NCBI GenBank assembly: GCA_039589315.1
Contig: JBDHHQ010000089.1
Coordinates: 1 to 17,792 of the forward strand
Direction: 5' to 3'
DNA from: Gemmatimonadota bacterium
GTDB lineage: Bacteria > Gemmatimonadota > Gemmatimonadetes > Longimicrobiales > Gaopeijiaceae
Length of the DNA: 17,792 nt
In this document: positions 2,373-17,323 of the stretch, in pieces
Position numbering within the stretch: position 1 is the first letter of the stretch
How the letters are laid out: each line of letters begins with the position of its first letter
The notes under the pieces: generated by a model
The model's database searches: none
Seen by the model: only the letters and a program-made list of their open reading frames with translations
Told to the model about the DNA's origin: nothing
Program-made: the position numbers and the translations under genes

Positions 2373-2726
2373 TTGAGAGCGAATTTACGGCGCACATTGA
2401 TAGTCGACATATTCGCGACGTATTTCGATCGTGCCTCCGCTCCACCTCACCCCCCGCACACGAGGCATAGGCCCGAGTTGGCGCCGAGCATCCGCCCAAT
2501 CATCTTCCGTCGCGGAGCGGACCCCCTCCGGAGGAGTGCACAACCGCCACGCCGCCGTCTGGGTCGGCGGTGCGGACAGGATCGCAACGAAGAGCCGGCC
2601 GCACCGAAGCGGATCGGCTGGACTGGCAGGGCAACTGGCCGGGCCCTATCGTGAATCCCGGCAACCGGCGGGCTCGTAGGGATCGAGCCGCACTGGAACC
2701 GCCCTGAAAGTCGGAGAGGTGGAGAC

Positions 2727-3044
2727 ATGGATCCGGCAGTGATCGACATTCTCGCACCCATGCTGTTCGCCGTCGTTCTGACGCTCACCGTCGGCGGCGT
2801 GATACTCCTGAAGCCCATCTCGGGCAAGATCGGCGATTTGCTCGAGGCCATGGCCGAGGAGCGCAAGAACCCGTCCCTGGCCGCGGAGCTCAACCAGCTC
2901 AGGGGACAGCTCGACACCATGAGCTCGCGAATGGCGTTGCTGGAGGAGCGCCAGGATTTCCATGAGAAGCTCATGGAGTCCCCGAGCCGTCTGCCCGCCA
3001 TCGAGTCCGGCTCCGGGGGGGCGACGGCTCCGCCGACCGGGTAG
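2727..3044 (+). CDS. Small membrane-anchored coiled-coil protein (105 aa), PspB-like architecture
   Basis: GGAG/GAGG RBS before ATG. One hydrophobic segment (ILAPMLFAVVLTLTVGGVILL) followed by a heptad-like helix ELNQLRGQLDTMSSRMALLEERQDFHEKLM. Confidence 0.8.
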   Translation: MDPAVIDILAPMLFAVVLTLTVGGVILLKPISGKIGDLLEAMAEERKNPSLAAELNQLRGQLDTMSSRMALLEERQDFHEKLMESPSRLPAIESGSGGATAPPTG

Positions 3045-3197
3045 AGGCGGCGAGTCCGCCGGGCCGGCCGAGGTCTCTGATTCGGCCACGGCCCAGATAC
3101 GGGAACTTCCACGCCCGAACCGACTACGCACTGTGCGAAGTCCGGGGCGGTCGGCAGATCCCCCGGCCAACAACCCGAGGCGACCAGTAAGAGGCCC

Positions 3198-4031
3198 ATG
3201 TCAAAGACGATCGTGCGCGTGGGAGATGTGGCGTGCGGTGACGATCAACTCTTCCTCATCTCGGGCCCGTGCGTGATCGAGGACGAGACCGTCATGCTCC
3301 GAACGGCCGAGGAGCTGGCGCGGGTGTCCGATGCACTGGACGTGCCCGTCATCTACAAGTCCTCGTTCACCAAGGACAATCGGAGCTCGCTGTCGTATTA
3401 CACGGGCCCGGGCATGGAAGACGGTCTCAGGACGCTGGCCCGGATCCGCGACGAGTTCGGCTTTCCGATACTCTCGGATATCCACCACCCAGACCAGGCG
3501 GCCCCCTCCGGTGAAGTACTGGATGTGATCCAGATACCGGCGTATCTGTGCATGCAGTCCGAGTTGATGGTCGCAGCAGCTCGGACCGGGAGAGCCGTGA
3601 ACATCAAGCACGGCCAGTTCCTCGCGCCGGAAAACATGACCAAGCCGATCCAGAAGTGCCTGGATTCGGGCAATGACCAGGTCATCTTGACCGAGCGAGG
3701 CTACACCTTCGGCTACAACGATCTTATAGTTGACCCGCGGAGCTTCTATCAACTCCAACAGACCGGCTATCCGGTGGTCTTTGACATAACCCACTCGATC
3801 CGCCGCTATGGGATCCCCAGCGCGGACCCCAGCGGAGGGGCCAGGGAGTTCCTACCGACGATTGCCCGAGCCGGCGTCGCGGCGGGTGTGGATGGTGTCT
3901 TCATCGAGACACACCCCGAACCGTCGAGTGCTCTTTGTGATGCCGCGAGCCAGCTCTCCGTATTCGACCTGGAGAGCTTCCTCGTCCCCCTGCTGGAGCT
4001 CCACAGCGTCGAAGTCTTGCACCGTGGGTAG
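3198..4031 (+). CDS. kdsA: 3-deoxy-8-phosphooctulonate (KDO8P) synthase family protein, metal-dependent type, divergent
   Basis: Motifs SGPCVIE, YKSSF.K.NRSS, QIPA.LC.Q, NIK.GQFLAP, TERG.TFGYNDL.VD.R, FD.THS, GG.REF, G.F.ETHPEP..ALCD. The Cys/His/Glu/Asp metal ligands are present. Confidence 0.9.
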   Translation: MSKTIVRVGDVACGDDQLFLISGPCVIEDETVMLRTAEELARVSDALDVPVIYKSSFTKDNRSSLSYYTGPGMEDGLRTLARIRDEFGFPILSDIHHPDQAAPSGEVLDVIQIPAYLCMQSELMVAAARTGRAVNIKHGQFLAPENMTKPIQKCLDSGNDQVILTERGYTFGYNDLIVDPRSFYQLQQTGYPVVFDITHSIRRYGIPSADPSGGAREFLPTIARAGVAAGVDGVFIETHPEPSSALCDAASQLSVFDLESFLVPLLELHSVEVLHRG

Positions 4032-4091
4032 CCCTGAAACGGATTGTCCGCCGCGCGGGACTGGAGAAGCCGATCCGAACCGGAATCGACC

Positions 4092-5096
4092 ATGGAACTA
4101 TATCTGGACAGCGCCGACCTCGCGGAAATCGAAGAGGCCTTCAAGCTCGGCTTCCTGGATGGCCTCACGACCACACCCACCTTCATGCACCGGCATGGGG
4201 TGACGGACACGGACGGTCTGGTCCTGAGGTTGGCCGAGATCGTTCCCGTTCTTCAGGTGGAGGCGCTGGGCGAGACCGCGGACCAGATCCACGGCGAGGC
4301 TCACCGTCTGCTGGATCTGGGACTGGACCGGGAGCGGACCGTCTTCAAGATCCCCGTCTCACTCGAGGGCGTCCGGGCCTGCAAGATGCTCAGGGACGAG
4401 GACTTCCTGGTGAATGTGCACCTGGTGTATACCCTGCAGCAGGCGTATATGGCCATGCACGCGGGCGCGACCTATGTGTGCCCGCTGGTGGGTCGTCTTC
4501 AGGATCAGGGGCACGACGCCCTCGATCTGGTCCGCCAGATCGTGGACGCGGTGGTATACTACGGGTACGCCACCAAGGTCATGTTCTCGTCGGTGCGACA
4601 TCCCGAGCACGTTCGGAACGCGCTCAACCTCGGCGTCCATACCATCACCGCCCCCTGGCGCGTCCTGGCTCGGCTGACGGAGAACAACTTCACCACGGTG
4701 GGTGCCGACCAGTTCTTCAAGCACACGCGTCTGCTCACCAAGACGGTGGCCGACGTCATGAGCAGCGTGAACCCACTGGTTGACTCGGAGACGACCCTCC
4801 AGGAAGCCATCGTGAAGATGACCGAGTACGGATTCGGATGCGTGACCGTCGTGAACGGAGACGGGAGCCTCTCGGGTGTGTTCACCGACGGGGATCTTCG
4901 TCGATTGCTCGAGAAGAACGGCCGTGAGGTCCTGAGCCGCAGGATGGCCGACCTCGTCTACAACGAGCCCATCAGCGTGGAGGCGGGCACGCTGCTCCAG
5001 CGGGCCGAGGAGCTGTTCCACGAGCACAAGGTGGACAACCTCCTCGTGCTGAGGAACGGGGCCCCGGTGGGGATGTTGGACATCCAGGATCTCTGA
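4092..5096 (+). CDS. Fusion of transaldolase/fructose-6-phosphate-aldolase family barrel (aa 1 to ~216) and KdsD/GutQ-type CBS pair (aa ~217-334)
   Basis: N-terminal MELYLDSA..EI, DGLTTTP, VFKIPVSLEG (Schiff-base Lys86), AGATYV.P.VGR, SSVRHPEHV. C-terminal TVADVM...GVFTDGDLRR...VGMLDIQDL. ATG at 4092 aligns with the family N-terminus. Confidence 0.9.
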   Translation: MELYLDSADLAEIEEAFKLGFLDGLTTTPTFMHRHGVTDTDGLVLRLAEIVPVLQVEALGETADQIHGEAHRLLDLGLDRERTVFKIPVSLEGVRACKMLRDEDFLVNVHLVYTLQQAYMAMHAGATYVCPLVGRLQDQGHDALDLVRQIVDAVVYYGYATKVMFSSVRHPEHVRNALNLGVHTITAPWRVLARLTENNFTTVGADQFFKHTRLLTKTVADVMSSVNPLVDSETTLQEAIVKMTEYGFGCVTVVNGDGSLSGVFTDGDLRRLLEKNGREVLSRRMADLVYNEPISVEAGTLLQRAEELFHEHKVDNLLVLRNGAPVGMLDIQDL

Positions 5097-5199
5097 GCCG
5101 GGTCACCATGCCGACGTCACTCCTCACCATCGTGCGCAGCTCCGGCGCCGCAGGCTCATCGGCGGGCGCGTCCGCCGGCTTGTTTCCGGGCAGGTCGCG

Positions 5200-5910
5200 G
5201 TGAGCCTCCGCACAGAGGAGTGGTTCCAGCGGCTCGGCGGGGAGCTTGTCTCACCCCTCGAGGACATTCGCCGGCGCCTTGGGGGGATTCGCGCGTTCGT
5301 ATTCGACTGGGACGGTGTGTTCAACGCCGGCGCCAAGGGGGAAGGTGCGCCCAGCCCGTTCTCCGAGGCCGATTCGATGGGGCAGAACCTGCTCCGCTTC
5401 GGCTGGTGGCTACGCGACGGCGGATCCATGCCTGCTACCGCCGTGCTCACGGGTCAGCACAACCCCTCGGCGGTCCAGTTCGCGCGGCGCGAGCGGTTCC
5501 ACGCCGTGTACCAGGGGTTCCTCGACAAGCGGGTGGCGCTGGAGCACTTCATGGAGACTTCCGGGTTGACCCCACGAAGCGTCGCCTTCTTCTTCGACGA
5601 TGCGCTGGATCTGCCGGTGGCCGAGCGTGTAGGCTTGCGGGTGCTGGTTCGGCGGGCGGCCTCGCCTCTCTTCCAGCGTCATGTCGTCGACGCGGGCGCG
5701 GCGGACTACGTCACCGGCCGCGAGGGCGGGGAGCACGCGGTCCGGGAGGCGGCAGAGCTGCTGCTGGGGCTGTCGGACCTGTATGCACGGGTCATCACGG
5801 AGCGGGCGGCGTTCGGGGACGCGTACGGAGCCTATTTTGCTGAGCGCCAGGGGCAGCCGGTACAAGTGTACCGCTCGAGCGAGGGGGACGTGGAGCCGGT
5901 CGAGGAATGA
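5200..5910 (+). CDS. HAD-superfamily phosphatase, KdsC (KDO8P phosphatase)-like with terminal extensions
   Basis: FDWDGV (motif I), VLTG (motif II), YQG..DK (motif III), FDDALD (motif IV variant) and the KdsC-type tail ADYVT..EGG..AVRE..ELLL. Confidence 0.85.
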   Translation: MSLRTEEWFQRLGGELVSPLEDIRRRLGGIRAFVFDWDGVFNAGAKGEGAPSPFSEADSMGQNLLRFGWWLRDGGSMPATAVLTGQHNPSAVQFARRERFHAVYQGFLDKRVALEHFMETSGLTPRSVAFFFDDALDLPVAERVGLRVLVRRAASPLFQRHVVDAGAADYVTGREGGEHAVREAAELLLGLSDLYARVITERAAFGDAYGAYFAERQGQPVQVYRSSEGDVEPVEE

Positions 5911-7859
5911 GGACGGCCGAGGCTGGCGCCTCCCCTTCTCCCCGACTCCAGATGCCCGCGACGTCCGAGGGTGGAAGCGCCAGCCGGTTGCGCCTGACCC
6001 GTTCCGTGCCGCAGTCTCCTCGTATGCTCCGTCACGACCGCACCAGAACGCCCGCACGCCGGCTCCCCGTCACGGCCGCCATCGCGTGCGGATCCGCCGC
6101 CCTGGGACTCGGGGGGGGCGTCGGCCCGGTGACGGCACAGGAATCCACTCCGCCGCGCCTGGTGGTGGTAGTGGTCGTGGACCAACTGCCTCAGCCGCTG
6201 CTGGCGGAGTACGACTCGCTCTTCACCGGCGGCTTCCGCCGGATTCTCGACCGGGGCTTTCGGTTCACCCAGGCCAGCCACGCCTACGCCCAGACCCATA
6301 CGGCAGCTGGTCACGCCACGGTGGCGACCGGCGTCGTACCGGCCCGACACGGCGTGGTGGCCAACGGGTGGCGGGAGAAGGAGGAGCGGGATTGGGTCGG
6401 CGTGAACGCGGTGGGGGACAGCACCGTACGCATCGTGGGGGTCCCGTGGGCCGAGGGCCGCTCGCCGGCGAACCTGCTACGCGAGGGCTTCGCCGACTGG
6501 CTGACGGCGGCGGACGCCCGATCCCGCGTGGTGACCGTGGGCGCCAAGGACCGTTCGGCCATCGGGCTCGCCGCCCGAGTCCGCGGTCACGTGTACTGGA
6601 TCAACACCTTCGAGGGCAGCTGGGTCACGTCCACGTACTACCGGGACAAGAACCCGGAGTGGCTCGACCGCTTCAACGAGGACGTGATGCCCACCTTCTT
6701 CACCGATTCGGTGTGGACGAGCGCCGTTCCTCCCGAATGGGCGCCCCTCAGTCGGCGGGACACGGTGTCGTATGAGGGGGACGGGGTGAACACCTTCTTC
6801 CCCCATCGCTATCTGGCCGAGGCCGATCTGGACGAGGAAGGCGCGCACAGGTTCTGGGTGGGCGGAACGCCGGCCTTCGACGCGGCTACGCTGGCCATGG
6901 CTGCCTTCGCCGCCGAGGAGTTGGAGCTGGGCCAGGACGACGTACCCGACTACCTGGGAGTGTCGTTGTCCCAGACGGACATCGTCGGGCACGGCTACGG
7001 ACCCCATTCCCGGGAGCAGCTCGACAACCTGCTGCGGCTCGACGGGGAGCTGGGTGGCTTCCTCGATGGCTTGGACGAGCTCGTCGGCGAGGGCCAATGG
7101 GCGCTCGCCTTCACGTCGGACCACGGCGCACTGCCCATGCCGGAGCACCTGGCGGAGGAGGGCGTGAGCGCCCGACGCACCACGACGGCCGAGCTTCAGG
7201 AAATGATCGTGGCCGCCCGCACCGCCGAGCGGGCAGGCCCGCCCGAGGGCGCACCGGAACGGGTGGCCGAGGCCCTCGAGCCGTTCCCGCTGGCCGTCCA
7301 GGTCTTCACCGGCCGGGACCTGACGGAGGGTGAGCCGGCCGACTCGTTCTGGACGCTCTTCGCCCGGGCCTACTACCCCGGGCGGGCCCTGGGCTACTTC
7401 GGCGACATGGGCGTCCTGGTCCGATTCCCGGAGCGGGTCATCCCCACCACCCGCACCACCGGCACCGACCACCGGAGCGGGTACTGGTACGACCGACACG
7501 TGCCGTTGGTCTTCCTCGGGCCGGGCATCGAGCCGGGCGTATCGGACGCGCCGGTCCGAGCCGTAGACATTGCGCCCACGCTGGCCTCGCTCCTGGACCT
7601 GGGCGTGCCGGACGATCTGGACGGCCGAGTGATCCTCCCCGGGCCCGAGGGCGGCTCCGCCGGAGCGGAGGGCGACTCGTCCGAGGTCGGTGAAGGCTCC
7701 TCGGAGGCAGCGGGCAGCCTACCCGAGTCCGATGCCGCCACCCCGGAGACGGGAAACGACCCACCCCCGCCCGGGTTCCAGGGCGGAGACCCGGAGCGAC
7801 GCAGCGACCCATCGGGTCCGCCGGGAGCCCAGAGAGTGTCCTCCACCCCGCCGCGATGA
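5907..7859 (+). CDS. Alkaline phosphatase superfamily protein, PafA/PhoK type, probably exported
   Basis: VVVVVDQL, THTAAGHATVATG (Thr nucleophile), KDRSAI, SQTDIVGHGYGP, TSDHG, YDRHVPLVF, VDIAPTLA. Signal-like segment ends in TAQ. Start uncertain (5907 overlapping the upstream stop, or 6024). Confidence 0.9.
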   Translation: MRTAEAGASPSPRLQMPATSEGGSASRLRLTRSVPQSPRMLRHDRTRTPARRLPVTAAIACGSAALGLGGGVGPVTAQESTPPRLVVVVVVDQLPQPLLAEYDSLFTGGFRRILDRGFRFTQASHAYAQTHTAAGHATVATGVVPARHGVVANGWREKEERDWVGVNAVGDSTVRIVGVPWAEGRSPANLLREGFADWLTAADARSRVVTVGAKDRSAIGLAARVRGHVYWINTFEGSWVTSTYYRDKNPEWLDRFNEDVMPTFFTDSVWTSAVPPEWAPLSRRDTVSYEGDGVNTFFPHRYLAEADLDEEGAHRFWVGGTPAFDAATLAMAAFAAEELELGQDDVPDYLGVSLSQTDIVGHGYGPHSREQLDNLLRLDGELGGFLDGLDELVGEGQWALAFTSDHGALPMPEHLAEEGVSARRTTTAELQEMIVAARTAERAGPPEGAPERVAEALEPFPLAVQVFTGRDLTEGEPADSFWTLFARAYYPGRALGYFGDMGVLVRFPERVIPTTRTTGTDHRSGYWYDRHVPLVFLGPGIEPGVSDAPVRAVDIAPTLASLLDLGVPDDLDGRVILPGPEGGSAGAEGDSSEVGEGSSEAAGSLPESDAATPETGNDPPPPGFQGGDPERRSDPSGPPGAQRVSSTPPR

Positions 7860-9073
7860 TCGCCGACCCCGTCGCGGTCCTGGTCGTCCTGGCCGTGGTG
7901 GTGTGGCTCGCCGTCCAGCTCGAAGAGCGATACAAGCTCTTTCGGTCGCTGGGCTCTGCACTCGTGGGGATCCTGGCGGCCATGGTCCTCTCCAATGCGG
8001 GTGTCATTCCGGGCGAGTCGTCGACCTACGAGTTCCTGATGGGGCCGGGGGTCAGCGTGGGCATCGCCCTGATCCTCTTCAGCGTCGACGTCCGTACCGT
8101 CTTCTCGGCGGGGCCCAAGATGCTCATTGCCTTCGCCATCGGCGCAACGGCCACGGCGGTGGGCGCCACCGTGGGGGCCCTGGCGTGGGCACCTTCGGTA
8201 GGCGAAGAGACGTGGAAGCTCGCCGGACAGTTCACGGGCACCTACACGGGCGGCGGCATGAACTTCGCCGCCCTCGGGCAGGCCCTCGACACGAGCCCGG
8301 ACCTGTTCACCGCCGCCACCGCGGCCGACGTGATCGTGACGGCCTTCTGGATGGCCGCGTGCCTGTCCGCACCCCTGCTGCTGGGCCGTGGTGGTGGGGC
8401 GGCGCCCGCGGCGAGGTGGGCCGGGGCAAAGGCGGCTGCCGGCGCCGCCCCCCCCACCGGCTCGCCCGAGGACGAGCCGCGGAGTGCGGGCGCAGCCGAC
8501 AGCGCCGCGACCGACACGCTGGAGAAGGCACTGTTCGGAACGGGCCGAGCTTTGCGCCTTACCGACGTGTCCGCTCTCGTGGTCCTGGCCGTGGGCAGTG
8601 TGGCCGTGGCCGGATGGCTGGGAGGCCGCCTGCCGGGCCTGCCCGAGGTCCTGTGGCTGACCACCGTCTCCCTGGCTCTGGCCCAGGTGCCGGCCGTGAA
8701 GCGAGTGGCCGGGGCCGCCATGCTGGGCAACTACCTGGTGCTGCTGTTTCTGGCCAGCAACGGTGCCCGGTCCGTCGTGGCCAACATCTTCGAGGTTGGG
8801 CCGGCGGTCTTCTACTACGCGGCCACGACCGTCGCCATACACGGCGCCATCATCTTCGGGGTGGGCAGGCTCGTGGGCCTGGACGCGGGGACGATTACCG
8901 TGGCCTCGCAAGCCAATGTGGGCGGGGCCGCCTCCGCCATGGCCATGGCCAGCGCCCGTGGGTATGGCGAGAAGCTCCTCCCTGGCGTGGCAGTCGGGCT
9001 TCTGGGATACGCCGTGGGGAACTACACGGGCTTCGCGGTGGCGCAATTGCTCCGAGGCGTGCTCGGCGGCTAG
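7856..9073 (+). CDS. DUF819 (YjcL-like) multi-pass membrane protein, putative transporter
   Basis: About 10-11 hydrophobic segments; motifs GTYTGGGMNFAA and VASQANVGG.ASA.AMA...G...L.LLGYA.GNY.G. ATGA overlap with the phosphatase stop. Confidence 0.85.
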   Translation: MIADPVAVLVVLAVVVWLAVQLEERYKLFRSLGSALVGILAAMVLSNAGVIPGESSTYEFLMGPGVSVGIALILFSVDVRTVFSAGPKMLIAFAIGATATAVGATVGALAWAPSVGEETWKLAGQFTGTYTGGGMNFAALGQALDTSPDLFTAATAADVIVTAFWMAACLSAPLLLGRGGGAAPAARWAGAKAAAGAAPPTGSPEDEPRSAGAADSAATDTLEKALFGTGRALRLTDVSALVVLAVGSVAVAGWLGGRLPGLPEVLWLTTVSLALAQVPAVKRVAGAAMLGNYLVLLFLASNGARSVVANIFEVGPAVFYYAATTVAIHGAIIFGVGRLVGLDAGTITVASQANVGGAASAMAMASARGYGEKLLPGVAVGLLGYAVGNYTGFAVAQLLRGVLGG

Positions 9074-9086
9074 CGGTCCGGCCCCC

Positions 9087-10178
9087 TCAATACAGTCGGT
9101 CCGTGTCCAGGACGTTCACGAGCGTCTCTCCCCTGAGAAAGCGGTCGAGGTTTTCGCAGAATAGGTCGATGATGCGTTCGTTCTCCCGGTCGCTCGTGCT
9201 GCCCGAATGCGGGCTCACGATGACGTTCGGCATTTCCCAGAAAGGGCTGTCCTCCGGCAGGGGCTCCTCTTCGAAGACGTCGAGGCTGGCGCCCCCCAGG
9301 TGTCCAGACTGCAGCGCGGCGACCAGGGAGGGTTCGTCGATGAGGGCGCCGCGGCCCACATTGATCACGACGGCGCCCTGGGGCAGAAGAGCGAGCTCCT
9401 CCTCGCCGATCACGTGCTCCGTCTCGGGCGTATGCGGCGCCGAAAGCACCAGGAAGTCCGCGCGGGGCAGGAGCTCCCTCAACCGCTCCGGCCCACCCAG
9501 CTCGTCGACACCGACGCGCTGGGGCTCGATCCCTTCCACGGATCGTTTCACGCCCACGACGTGCATGCCCAGCGACCGACTCACCCGGGCGACGGACTTG
9601 CCGATACCTCCCAGTCCGTAGATCAGCACCGTCCGGCCCAGCAGATCCGTGCCGGCGAAACGCTCCCACGACTTTTCCCGCTGCTGACCGAGGGCCTGAA
9701 GGAGCCCACGGGAGAAGGCGAGCATGGACATGACGGCGTACTCGGCCAGGGGTTGGGCGTGGACGCCGGCAGCACTGGTGAAGACAGCGCCCGGCCACCG
9801 CTCGGCGTACCGCTGCCGCGCGATCAGCTGACCGATGCCGGCGCTGGTGAACTGAATCCAGCGGACATGAGGGGCCAGCTCTGGAAGCTCGTCCTGGTTC
9901 GTGCGGTCGAAGTCGAAGAGGATGCTCGCCCGGGCCAGGAACTCCCGCCACACGCGCTCGTCGGCATCGCCGCGCCGGAGCCTCGAGCCCACGTGGTCGC
10001 TGGCGTACCTCGGCCTGGGGAGCAGGTCGGGCTCGTAGATCACCTCGACGTTGTAGTCTACGTGACGGATGCGCGAGACCAGGTCCGGGTGGATGTAGGA
10101 GCAGATGACCAGCGACTCCTTGAAGTCGACCGGTGTCGGCGGGTCGAGGGGGCGAAACTCGGGGAATTGCTCGTTCAC
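9087..10178 (-). CDS. D-2-hydroxyacid dehydrogenase family protein (NAD(P)-dependent)
   Basis: WIQFTSAG, GVHAQPLAEY, Rossmann GLGGIG, P.TPET, INVGRG, ASLDVFEEEPLP.DSP.W.MPNVIVSPH. GTG at 10178 overlaps the upstream TGA (GTGA). Confidence 0.92.
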   Translation of the reverse strand: MNEQFPEFRPLDPPTPVDFKESLVICSYIHPDLVSRIRHVDYNVEVIYEPDLLPRPRYASDHVGSRLRRGDADERVWREFLARASILFDFDRTNQDELPELAPHVRWIQFTSAGIGQLIARQRYAERWPGAVFTSAAGVHAQPLAEYAVMSMLAFSRGLLQALGQQREKSWERFAGTDLLGRTVLIYGLGGIGKSVARVSRSLGMHVVGVKRSVEGIEPQRVGVDELGGPERLRELLPRADFLVLSAPHTPETEHVIGEEELALLPQGAVVINVGRGALIDEPSLVAALQSGHLGGASLDVFEEEPLPEDSPFWEMPNVIVSPHSGSTSDRENERIIDLFCENLDRFLRGETLVNVLDTDRLY

Positions 10179-15929: not shown

Positions 15930-17323
15930 ATGCGCAGGCTCGCATCCGTCACCCTCGTCCTGGCTGTAATCGCTCTCCCCTCGTCGGTCCGGGCCCAGGA
16001 CACGCCCGACGCGGTGGTGGCTGCGCTGGAGGCCAGGACTGCCCACATGACCGACGTGGCCATGGAGATCTGGCGCCTGGCCGAGCTGGGGTACCTGGAG
16101 GAGAAGAGCTCGGCGCTGCTCCAGTCCGAGCTGGTAGACGCGGGCTTCAGCGTGGACGCCGGCGTAGCGGAGATCCCCACCGCGTTCGTGGCCAGCTGGG
16201 GCAGTGGGGCGCCCGTGATCGGCGTGCTGGCCGAGTTCGACGCGCTACCCGGGATCAACCAGGATGCCGTGCCGACCAGGCAGCCCATCGAGGGGAAACA
16301 CGCCGGACACGCCTGCGGCCACCACCTCTTCGGGACCGCCTCCACCCACGCGGCCATCGCCGCGAAGCAGTGGCTGGAGGCCACAGGCTCGTCGGGCACG
16401 ATCCGCCTTTACGGCACGCCGGCCGAGGAGGGTGGGTCGGGGAAGGTCTACATGGCCCGGGCGGGGTTGTTCGATGACGTGGACGCGGTCATCTCGTGGC
16501 ACGCCGGCGACCGCAACTACGCGGGGCCGAACACGAACCTGGCGGTGAAGTCGGCCAAGTTCCGCTTCCACGGCGTCTCGGCCCACGCCGCCGCGCCATG
16601 GTCAACATGCTCCGGGAGCATGTCCCGCAGGAGACGCGCATCCACTACGTCATCACCGCCGGTGGCAACGCTCCCAACGTGGTGCCCGACTTCGCCGAGG
16701 TCTACTACTACGTCCGAAATCCCGAGCCCGAGATGGTGAAGGCCATCTTCGACCGGGTGGTGACCGCGGCGGAGGGTGCCGCCCTGGGGACCGGCACCGA
16801 CATGGAGCTCGAGATCATCGCGGGTGCCTACAACCGTCTGCCCAACGTGGCGCTCCAGGAGGTGATGCACAGGAGCCTCGAGCGGGTCGGTGGCGTGGAG
16901 TACGACGAGCGCGAGCGGGAGTTCGCCCGGACGATCCAATCCTCCTTCCCGGATCCGCCGCCCCTGGACCAGGCCTGGGTCATCCAGCCCTTCGAGTTTC
17001 GTCAGACATACGCCTCGGCCGATACGGGGGACATCACGTGGCTCGTGCCCTCAGCCAACCTGAGCACGGCAACCTGGGTGCCGGGCACGTCGGCGCACTC
17101 GTGGCAGGCCATCGCCTCGGGGGGGATGAGCATCGGCGCAAAGGGGATGATGGTGGCCGCCAAGACGCTGGCGCTGACCGCCATCGACCTGTTCAGCACC
17201 CCCGACGTGATCGCGGCGGCACAGAGCGAATTCGACGAACGGCGGGGCTCGGACTTCGTCTATGAGGCCCTCCTGGGCGACAGGGATCCGCCGCTGGACT
17301 ACCGGGCCAGCGTCGCCCGGTAG
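15930..17323 (+). pseudogene. M20-family amidohydrolase (AbgB-like) with Sec signal peptide, split by an out-of-frame internal deletion near 16597
   Basis: Frame 1 (from 15930, GGAGG RBS): ELGY.E.KSS, IPTAFVA, LAEFDALPG, HACGHHL.G, GTPAEEGG.GKVYM, WH, FHGVSAHAAAP. Frame 2 (from 16598): MVNMLREHVP...RIHYVIT.GG.APNVVP, S.D.GD.TW.VP, PGT.AHSWQ. The intervening GRSALD segment is absent. Confidence 0.85.

Follow-up and report, generated by a model that had tools for sequence, protein, structure and literature searches.

On contig JBDHHQ010000089.1 of the Gemmatimonadota assembly GCA_039589315.1 (contig C89 of the genome; its whole stretch of 17,792 nucleotides is referred to here as the window), a gene for a transaldolase-like TIM-barrel fused to a pair of CBS domains lies between genes for a KdsA-type 3-deoxy-D-manno-octulosonate 8-phosphate (KDO8P) synthase and a KdsC-type phosphatase, and this fusion is probably a non-orthologous replacement of the D-arabinose 5-phosphate (A5P) isomerase KdsD. 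In the proposed pathway, the fusion protein would supply A5P to the KDO8P synthase in place of KdsD, and the three-gene cassette suggests a route to A5P that has not been described. Most Gram-negative bacteria require the eight-carbon sugar 3-deoxy-D-manno-oct-2-ulosonate (Kdo) for their outer membrane, and KdsD is, to our knowledge, regarded both as a drug target and as the enzyme that universally catalyses the first committed step of Kdo synthesis. In the initial annotation of this DNA, the fusion was proposed to provide this KdsA with its aldose phosphate as a non-orthologous supplier; each of the comparative tests suggested there supports that proposal, and the function assigned here is the one predicted from such sequence comparisons.

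The three genes follow one another head to tail on the + strand, and none of the 19 open reading frames (ORFs) of the window scanned against Pfam contains a SIS domain; coordinates and domain scan are therefore in agreement with the initial annotation, which had noted three consecutive same-strand genes and no SIS isomerase. This arrangement is not a product of chance, since the same order recurs in dozens of independent loci. The ORF of the fusion spans positions 4044-5096 and opens at a TTG codon (4044), but since every homologue starts with MELYLDS, translation most likely begins at the ATG at 4092. In the long form, Pfam detects a TAL_FSA domain (PF00923) at amino acids 19-218 (E 4e-33; 115 bits, cut-off 27), as well as two CBS stretches (E 3e-17), so that the protein consists of a barrel (about residues 1-212; positions 4092-4727) and a KdsD-type CBS pair (about residues 229-334; positions 4776-5093). 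With 152 bits on TIGR00875, against a cut-off of 246, it falls far under the equivalog cut-offs for transaldolase and fructose-6-phosphate aldolase (FSA). In an AlphaFold2 model (mean pLDDT 78; the linker at residues 197-218 is of low confidence), the barrel superposes on small transaldolases with TM-scores of 0.82-0.88 at 30-35% sequence identity, as found with Foldseek.

We aligned the residues of the fusion to those of solved transaldolases; the numbering of the fusion coincides with that of the Thermoplasma acidophilum enzyme (PDB variants K86A and E60Q/F132Y). The barrel retains Asp6, Glu57 (Glu60 in T. acidophilum), the Schiff-base residue Lys86, Asn108, Arg135, Ser167 and Arg169, and it departs from classical transaldolases by the replacements Asn to Thr28, Thr to His110, Ser to Cys130 and Phe to Leu132 (the last position being Tyr in FSA). 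Retained and altered positions alike are invariant in 15 homologues with 67-97% identity to the window protein. The TIM-barrel and the alignment of Lys86, Asp6 and Glu57 with the T. acidophilum transaldolase place the protein in the transaldolase/FSA superfamily, whereas the family-wide Thr28, His110, Cys130 and Leu132 set it apart from the classical equivalogs; it represents an uncharacterised clade of this superfamily. Thr110 of classical transaldolases presumably holds the catalytic water, and Phe or Tyr at position 132 is taken by us to decide between transferase and aldolase activity.

The C-terminal half of the fusion has another affiliation. Its CBS pair (residues 229-350 of the long form) finds its top family matches in kpsF (E 1.7e-16), KdsD (E 1.4e-13) and GutQ, and these profiles align only through their CBS part (positions 152-259 of 268). 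Among solved CBS chains, matches at E 1e-8 or better are limited to the pairs of A5P isomerases, 4O9K (E 5e-15) and 3K2V (E 5e-9), KdsD CBS pairs that we assume to have been solved with CMP-Kdo bound. From residue 213 to its C-terminus, the fusion is collinear with the KdsD protein of a relative (34% identity over 124 amino acids), which places the junction where the SIS domain of KdsD ends. The protein consequently combines TAL_FSA with KdsD-type CBS domains and has no SIS domain, and the alignment indicates that the catalytic half of KdsD is swapped while its regulatory half is kept. If the presumed binding of CMP-Kdo holds, the inherited CBS pair would probably subject the enzyme to end-product control.

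The partner genes are likewise divergent. The cassette KdsA matches DAHP_synth_1 (E 7e-61) and surpasses two KDO8P synthase equivalog cut-offs (NF003543, 335.7 against 242 bits; TIGR01362, 324 against 314 bits); its metal ligands Cys25, His199, Glu237 and Asp248 correspond to Cys11, His185, Glu222 and Asp233 of the Aquifex aeolicus enzyme, and the KxNRSS motif is kept. When 63 distinct cassette-type sequences were compared with 12 canonical ones, with equivalent positions taken from the A. aeolicus alignment, the cassette proteins nevertheless emerged as a separate subfamily: Asp60 stands for Aquifex Ala47, Tyr116 for Phe103, His138 for Lys125, Arg202 for Gln188, Tyr204 for Pro190 and Cys247 for Ser232, and Met119 (63 of 63 cassette-type sequences) stands for Arg106 (12 of 12 canonical ones), the arginine of the KdsA motif PAFLCRQ. 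Aquifex Arg106 presumably binds the phosphate of A5P from the neighbouring subunit, and position 202 of the cassette protein would be in the L7 loop; the five other fixed replacements are located near the active site. The structure matches include PDB entries for an Aquifex enzyme in which position 106 is Gly. The window KdsA shares only 43-53% identity with KdsA proteins from its phylum, as against 66-77% with fusion-linked KdsA proteins of Bacteroidota and of metagenome-assembled genomes (MAGs) labelled Gemmatimonadales. The cassette KdsC has no Pfam match at E 1e-3 and scores below the cut-offs of the KdsC models (NF007019, E 8e-16, 58 against 208 bits; TIGR01670, 51 against 107 bits), with E. 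coli KdsC (2R8E; E 4e-12) as its nearest solved relative. The HAD motifs DWDG (DxDG), TG, K and DD are present and align with E. coli KdsC, with TGQ in place of TGR. Hence, the departure of all three enzymes from canonical motifs, to which the initial annotation had pointed, is borne out by the residue comparisons.

The genome from which the window stems (G000) offers a natural replacement experiment, since native kdsA, kdsC and kdsD have been lost, leaving the cassette as their sole substitute. In relatives from the same phylum, lpt genes, lptB and rpoN come after kdsB-pyrG-kdsA-kdsC, to which kdsD may or may not be added. The corresponding contig of the source genome (C2) reads kdsB, pyrG, an LptC-like ORF, a 754-amino-acid LptA-like ORF, lptB and rpoN, and no kdsA, kdsC or kdsD was found in this operon or elsewhere in the genome outside the window. 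The cassette, with the order kdsA-fusion-kdsC, sits at a different locus. Its kdsA is the only one of the genome, two other genes of the DAHP synthase family scoring no higher than about 120-128 bits with the KdsA model. The six matches to the kpsF profile genome-wide cover the CBS part only, with the fusion itself scoring best; SIS matches are confined to contigs C30, C32 and C9 and comprise two strong GlmS-like genes and two faint matches. A canonical kdsD elsewhere in the genome, which would have spoken against the proposal, is therefore lacking. In addition, contig C84 encodes a classical small transaldolase with the motifs TTNPS, SAEV, VKVP, NVTL, SPFVGRIDD and ASIR, and for this reason the fusion is not the housekeeping transaldolase. 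The simplest history compatible with these gene contents is that a horizontally acquired cassette replaced native kdsA, kdsC and kdsD in this genus, and it is this three-for-three replacement that equates the fusion with the role of KdsD. The product of the imported cassette would then be handled by the native KdsB and WaaA proteins, both of which are encoded in this genome.

The setting in which this replacement occurred is a phylum that otherwise relies on KdsD. In the phylum sample, kdsA is present in 60 of 61 genomes (the source genome included) and KdsD in 51 of the 60 others, and the fusion is found in none of 150 other sampled genomes. Among 20 close relatives, only G151, a member of the same genus, has a full-length fusion, and it is devoid of KdsD; KdsD is present in 16 of the remaining 19, the fusion in none. 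The phylum tallies for kdsA and KdsD include the unpublished genome G057, and those for the close relatives the unpublished genome G097; no conclusion depends on either. G151 displays the identical gene order on a 115-kb contig, with 87-97% identity for the glutamate dehydrogenase gene adjoining the cassette, for the cassette itself and for two downstream neighbours; further along the contig, the identity is lower (65-91%). The glutamate dehydrogenase gene of the window is 57-63% identical to that of other family members.

Outside this genus, the fusion belongs to a sizeable protein family. The best 120 database matches are all transaldolase-CBS proteins of 325-337 amino acids, which public annotations label as transaldolase, FSA or CBS-domain protein. 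A pattern scan using one genome per species found carriers in at least 583 species genomes; those listed are mostly Cytophagales, Chitinophagales and non-Flavobacteriaceae Flavobacteriales, along with some Bacteroidales and Gemmatimonadales MAGs, and they include the cultured bacteria Thermonema rossianum, Thermoflexibacter ruber and Chryseolinea serpens. For synteny counts, 80 loci were kept, 76 of which offered room to judge an upstream kdsA. A same-strand kdsA precedes the fusion in 58 of these 76, a cassette-type kdsC lies downstream in 64 of 80, and the complete kdsA-fusion-kdsC order is found in 54 of 80, so that the linkage of homologous fusions to kdsA and kdsC, whose absence the initial annotation had named as evidence against its proposal, is seen at most of these loci. 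Where the fusion does not adjoin kdsA, the sole KdsA of the genome was still of the Met type in the five cases seen.

Fifty carrier genomes were chosen from the 80 loci, with longer loci favoured, and were searched for KdsD at a kpsF-family threshold of E 1e-25. No match was obtained in 45 of them. All 50 possess KdsA, 47 in one copy and three in two, and in these 47 the cassette gene is the sole kdsA; both the predicted lack of kdsD and the test for a second, canonical kdsA thus came out in favour of the proposal. The three genomes with two copies (G167, G478 and G479), all large and of the Cytophagales type, contain canonical KdsA and KdsD in addition to the Met-type KdsA with its fusion; KdsD lies beside or near the second, canonical KdsA in two of them, and a canonical kdsC adjoins it in the third. 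The two modules may serve different glycans. Among 301 Bacteroidota genomes that were sampled evenly, the fusion occurs in four and KdsD in 217, and 84 lack KdsD; KdsD is present in one of the four carriers versus 216 of the 297 non-carriers, and all three newly found carriers are without it. The notion that divergent fusions might be hidden in KdsD-less Bacteroidota was rejected: five such genomes (G173, G178, G183, G188 and G193) have classical transaldolases only, GlmS as their sole SIS protein and no KdsA, and because KdsA is absent as well, they are not counted against the pattern. As a separate observation, a sizeable part of the Bacteroidota seems to be without the Kdo pathway, judging from the 84 of 301 genomes with no KdsD-family match and from the absence of KdsA in all five that were checked. 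A classical, better-scoring transaldolase is separately present in each of the five other carriers tested. Together with the gene on C84, this argues against a fusion that is an ordinary transaldolase only, the activity of the fusion itself being a prediction.

The signature His110/Cys130/Leu132 marks a broader clade that reaches well beyond the fusions of the cassette type. In a search of 1.8 billion cluster representatives, the best 150 were classified by signature; 38 carry His/Cys/Leu and 60 the classical Thr/Ser/Phe, and the clade contains full-length fusions (30-42% identity) together with stand-alone barrels of about 215 amino acids. With a narrowed profile of these distant forms (28-40% identity), 74 metagenome loci were fetched, 69 of which have the signature. 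A same-strand kdsA is located upstream in 61 of the 62 evaluable loci, often in the order kdsB-kdsA-barrel gene, while two loci of the classical signature from the same metagenome scan show no kdsA. The KdsA protein encoded upstream is of the Met type in 40 of these 61 loci and of the canonical Arg type in 21. As the variant barrel follows both types of KdsA, the changes in the cassette KdsA would be a lineage feature and not a requirement; and since the barrel also pairs with a canonical KdsA that keeps the full A5P site, its product is most simply, and probably, ordinary A5P. Four of the distant fusions (P0128, P0130, P0137 and P0149; 334-339 amino acids) keep KdsD-like CBS domains (GVFTDGDLRR), and their barrels are without Lys86, Asp6 and most other catalytic residues; these proteins are possible pseudoenzymes or regulators.

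Several points weigh against the assignment of an A5P-forming role to the fusion. No kdsA adjoins it at 18 of the 76 evaluable loci, and five of the 50 carrier genomes also have KdsD. Because the cassette is passed on as a whole and related genomes do not count as separate cases, the anti-correlation between the fusion and KdsD may rest on few evolutionary events. On chemical reasoning, there is no simple Schiff-base route from D-ribulose 5-phosphate (Ru5P) to A5P, and the loss of the Arg106 equivalent in the cassette KdsA could mean that this enzyme uses a different substrate. Moreover, 12 genomes of the same phylum are without both KdsD and the fusion; kdsA is confirmed in the nine that were covered by the kdsA search (G025, G039, G043, G044, G045, G058, G059, G060 and G018), and three were outside this search (G157, G159 and G161). 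Several of the 12 are single-contig genomes, that is, closed or nearly closed, and where inspected, kdsA resides in a kdsB-pyrG-kdsA-kdsC operon. A stand-alone variant barrel was considered for these genomes and rejected, as none of them has a second transaldolase: eight have one classical transaldolase with the TSF signature, three have one long-form transaldolase with an unalignable signature, and one has none. Among the SIS proteins in five of the 12, GlmS alone matches strongly, and two of these five genomes show faint, short matches besides. Gene content of this kind indicates that a further source of A5P must exist in nature beyond KdsD and the fusion, with a moonlighting GlmS as a candidate, and genomes with kdsA and neither enzyme entail that the absence of KdsD alone does not force an A5P role on the fusion.

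It is from these genomes that the most serious rival explanation draws its strength. The fusion might not form A5P at all and might instead be a CBS-regulated transaldolase or FSA-type enzyme, or a regulator, that adjusts the pools of pentose phosphates or A5P next to kdsA, while A5P comes from elsewhere, for instance from a moonlighting GlmS. Besides the own-phylum genomes with kdsA and neither KdsD nor the variant barrel, the two GlmS-like genes of the source genome and the pseudoenzyme-like loss of Lys86 in some distant fusions would fit such a role, as would the side activity of a GlmS homologue: eukaryotic GFAT isomerises Ru5P to A5P and rescues an E. coli kdsD gutQ mutant (PMC11301363). 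We nonetheless consider this explanation unlikely. A mere modulator would hardly account for the tight linkage to kdsA in two distant clades, for the loss of native kdsD along with kdsA and kdsC on arrival of the cassette, or for a barrel that occupies the position of the catalytic domain of KdsD instead of standing beside that domain. Asp, Glu and Lys, the catalytic residues, are invariant, as are Arg and Ser of the phosphate site, and fixed new His, Cys and Leu residues are added to them, and a separate classical transaldolase is available in every genome tested.

The initial annotation had also entertained a variant ulosonate as the product of the cassette, and this proposal has fared less well. 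In such a scheme, the barrel would supply another aldose phosphate, and the cassette KdsA and KdsC would be tuned to match. The uniform deviation of all 63 cassette KdsA proteins from the 12 canonical ones around the aldose-phosphate site (Met119, Asp60, Arg202 and others) is in line with it, as is the coexistence of a canonical and a cassette module in three genomes; a DNA pattern for QIPAYLxMQ, furthermore, hits exactly the four fusion carriers of the 301-genome sample, always beside the fusion. A variant sugar is, however, difficult to reconcile with the canonical KdsA that precedes the same barrel in about a third of the linked metagenome loci (21 of 61), with the status of the cassette KdsA as sole KdsA in 47 of 50 carriers, and with the retention in the source genome of waaA and of native kdsB in its conserved operon, both of which would need Kdo. 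Not only does the cassette KdsA pass two KDO8P synthase cut-offs with its four metal ligands and NRSS intact, but the arginine lost at position 119 and gained at position 202 looks like a rebuilt or relocated phosphate site rather than a lost one. We therefore regard a Kdo variant as improbable. Still far less credible is an assembly or binning artefact derived from a contaminating Bacteroidota or Gemmatimonadales organism, for although the assembly has 288 contigs with an estimated contamination of 5%, none of the 150 other phylum genomes carries the fusion and the nearest cassette proteins come from Bacteroidota and Gemmatimonadales MAGs, the cassette adjoins, on the same contig, a glutamate dehydrogenase gene with 57-63% identity to that of family members, G151 repeats the arrangement on its 115-kb contig, the G+C content of C89 equals that of the genome, and the assembly has no other kdsA, kdsC or kdsD.

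If the fusion indeed replaces KdsD, the question arises of how a transaldolase fold might produce A5P. We tentatively favour, with less than even confidence, a non-covalent enediol isomerisation of Ru5P by Glu57, His110 and Lys86, a trio that resembles the Glu, His and Lys residues used by triosephosphate isomerase. An isomerase on this fold would need to avoid the Schiff base, because Ru5P attached covalently would end up trapped as a Heyns-type amine. A second route is possible, but doubtful: the barrel could act directly as a ribose-5-phosphate 2-epimerase (or catalyse a related enamine reaction) and not isomerise Ru5P. Here, Lys86 would form a Schiff base on the aldehyde of ribose 5-phosphate, His110 and Glu57 would abstract the C2 proton and then give it back, and the iminium/enamine formed on Lys86 would be the intermediate that FSA makes from glycolaldehyde. 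An FSA-like aldol addition of glycolaldehyde to glyceraldehyde 3-phosphate is unlikely, and the remainder of our expectation goes to some other chemistry. No source of glycolaldehyde is encoded in the cassette, and this absence, together with a single gene that bridges central metabolism to KdsA, implies that the substrate should be a common pentose phosphate. A5P corresponds to fructose 6-phosphate minus C1, and attachment of its C1 to Lys86 would position the phosphate at the site formed by Arg135, Ser167 and Arg169. E. coli FsaA reversibly cleaves A5P to glycolaldehyde and glyceraldehyde 3-phosphate (KM 0.65 mM; kcat 3.6 per s) (PMC6900487), which makes A5P a plausible ligand for the transaldolase/FSA fold.

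The coordinates of the cassette and of the genes that follow it are compiled in Table 1. The PafA-like and DUF819 genes behind kdsC were seen in this genus only (the source genome and G151) and in none of the 80 related loci; they may be co-transcribed with the cassette in this genus. A scan of positions 2400-9300 for promoters and terminators returned no promoter-like sites and four terminator-like ones, versus 2.3 +/- 1.6 in shuffled sequences. Towards the end of the window, the catalytic part (15930-16739) and the dimerisation part (16496-17323) of a Peptidase_M20 protein are found in overlapping ORFs in different frames, possibly as the result of a frameshift, a pseudogene or a sequencing error. 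The source assembly amounts to 6.67 Mb with a G+C content of 68%, matched by that of C89, and an estimated completeness of 95%; most family members have 2-4.7 Mb. A second fragment of the glutamate dehydrogenase gene of the window, 94% identical, is located on contig C96 (G000:C96:16777-17484), and the two GlmS-like genes are on C30 and C32. This fragment, the GlmS-like pair and the large assembly may reflect two related strains or real duplications.

Table 1. Genes of the cassette and its downstream neighbours in the window
Feature	Coordinates	Strand	Length	Basis or remark
Cassette kdsA: metal-type KDO8P synthase, distinct subfamily	3198..4031	+	277 aa	Family scores; residue alignment to Aquifex aeolicus KDO8P synthase
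Transaldolase-CBS fusion	4092..5096	+	334 aa	Pfam domains; residue mapping; AlphaFold2 model; Foldseek
Cassette kdsC: divergent YrbI/KdsC-family HAD phosphatase	5200..5910	+		KdsC models below cut-off; HAD motifs
PafA-like alkaline phosphatase/phosphodiesterase	5907..7859	+		Start overlaps kdsC stop; lineage-specific neighbour, outside the conserved cassette
DUF819 membrane protein	7856..9073	+		Start overlaps stop of PafA-like gene; lineage-specific neighbour

In the full-text literature, from which subscription journals were outside our coverage, we found no description of a transaldolase-CBS protein or operon in Kdo synthesis. New here are the exchange of the full native set of kdsA, kdsC and kdsD within a phylum otherwise using KdsD, the residue signature of the cassette KdsA with its relocated arginine, and the pairing of distant forms of the barrel with canonical KdsA. 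Should the proposed function prove true, it would fill a gap in the metabolic reconstruction of hundreds of species that seemingly lack the A5P step, correct the annotations "transaldolase" and "fructose-6-phosphate aldolase", extend the activities of a well-studied aldolase fold by a new one, and provide a clean example of a domain swap in which the regulatory half of an enzyme is retained and its catalytic half replaced. If the 2-epimerase chemistry were the correct one, many bacterial lineages would possess a new entry into the synthesis of Kdo and lipopolysaccharide, with or without a KdsD-derived CBS switch.

Among known systems, E. coli FsaA uses Gln59, Thr109 and Tyr131, whereas Glu, His and Leu occupy the aligned places in the fusion, and solved FsaA chains match the fusion less well (E 1e-15) than transaldolases do. 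FsaA nevertheless belongs to the same superfamily, and its fold can bind A5P through the aldehyde (PMC6900487). The small decameric transaldolases of T. maritima (1VPX), B. subtilis (3R8R) and T. acidophilum (3S0C) share with the fusion the fold and the residues Asp6, Glu57, Lys86, Asn108, Arg135, Ser167 and Arg169; they differ from it by Asn28, Thr110, Ser130 and Phe132, and the fusion adds the CBS pair, the linkage to kdsA and the coexistence with a classical transaldolase. The canonical kdsA-kdsC-kdsD operon resembles the cassette in that a synthase, a phosphatase and a precursor supply feed KdsB and WaaA, but in the cassette all three genes are divergent, their order is another, and so is their locus. 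The closest functional counterparts are KdsD, GutQ and KpsF, with which the fusion shares the place in the pathway, often the place in the operon, the length, the two-part layout and a homologous C-terminal CBS pair. Their catalytic domain is of the SIS type, in contrast to the transaldolase/FSA TIM-barrel of the fusion, and the same chemistry can consequently not be assumed for the two kinds of enzyme.

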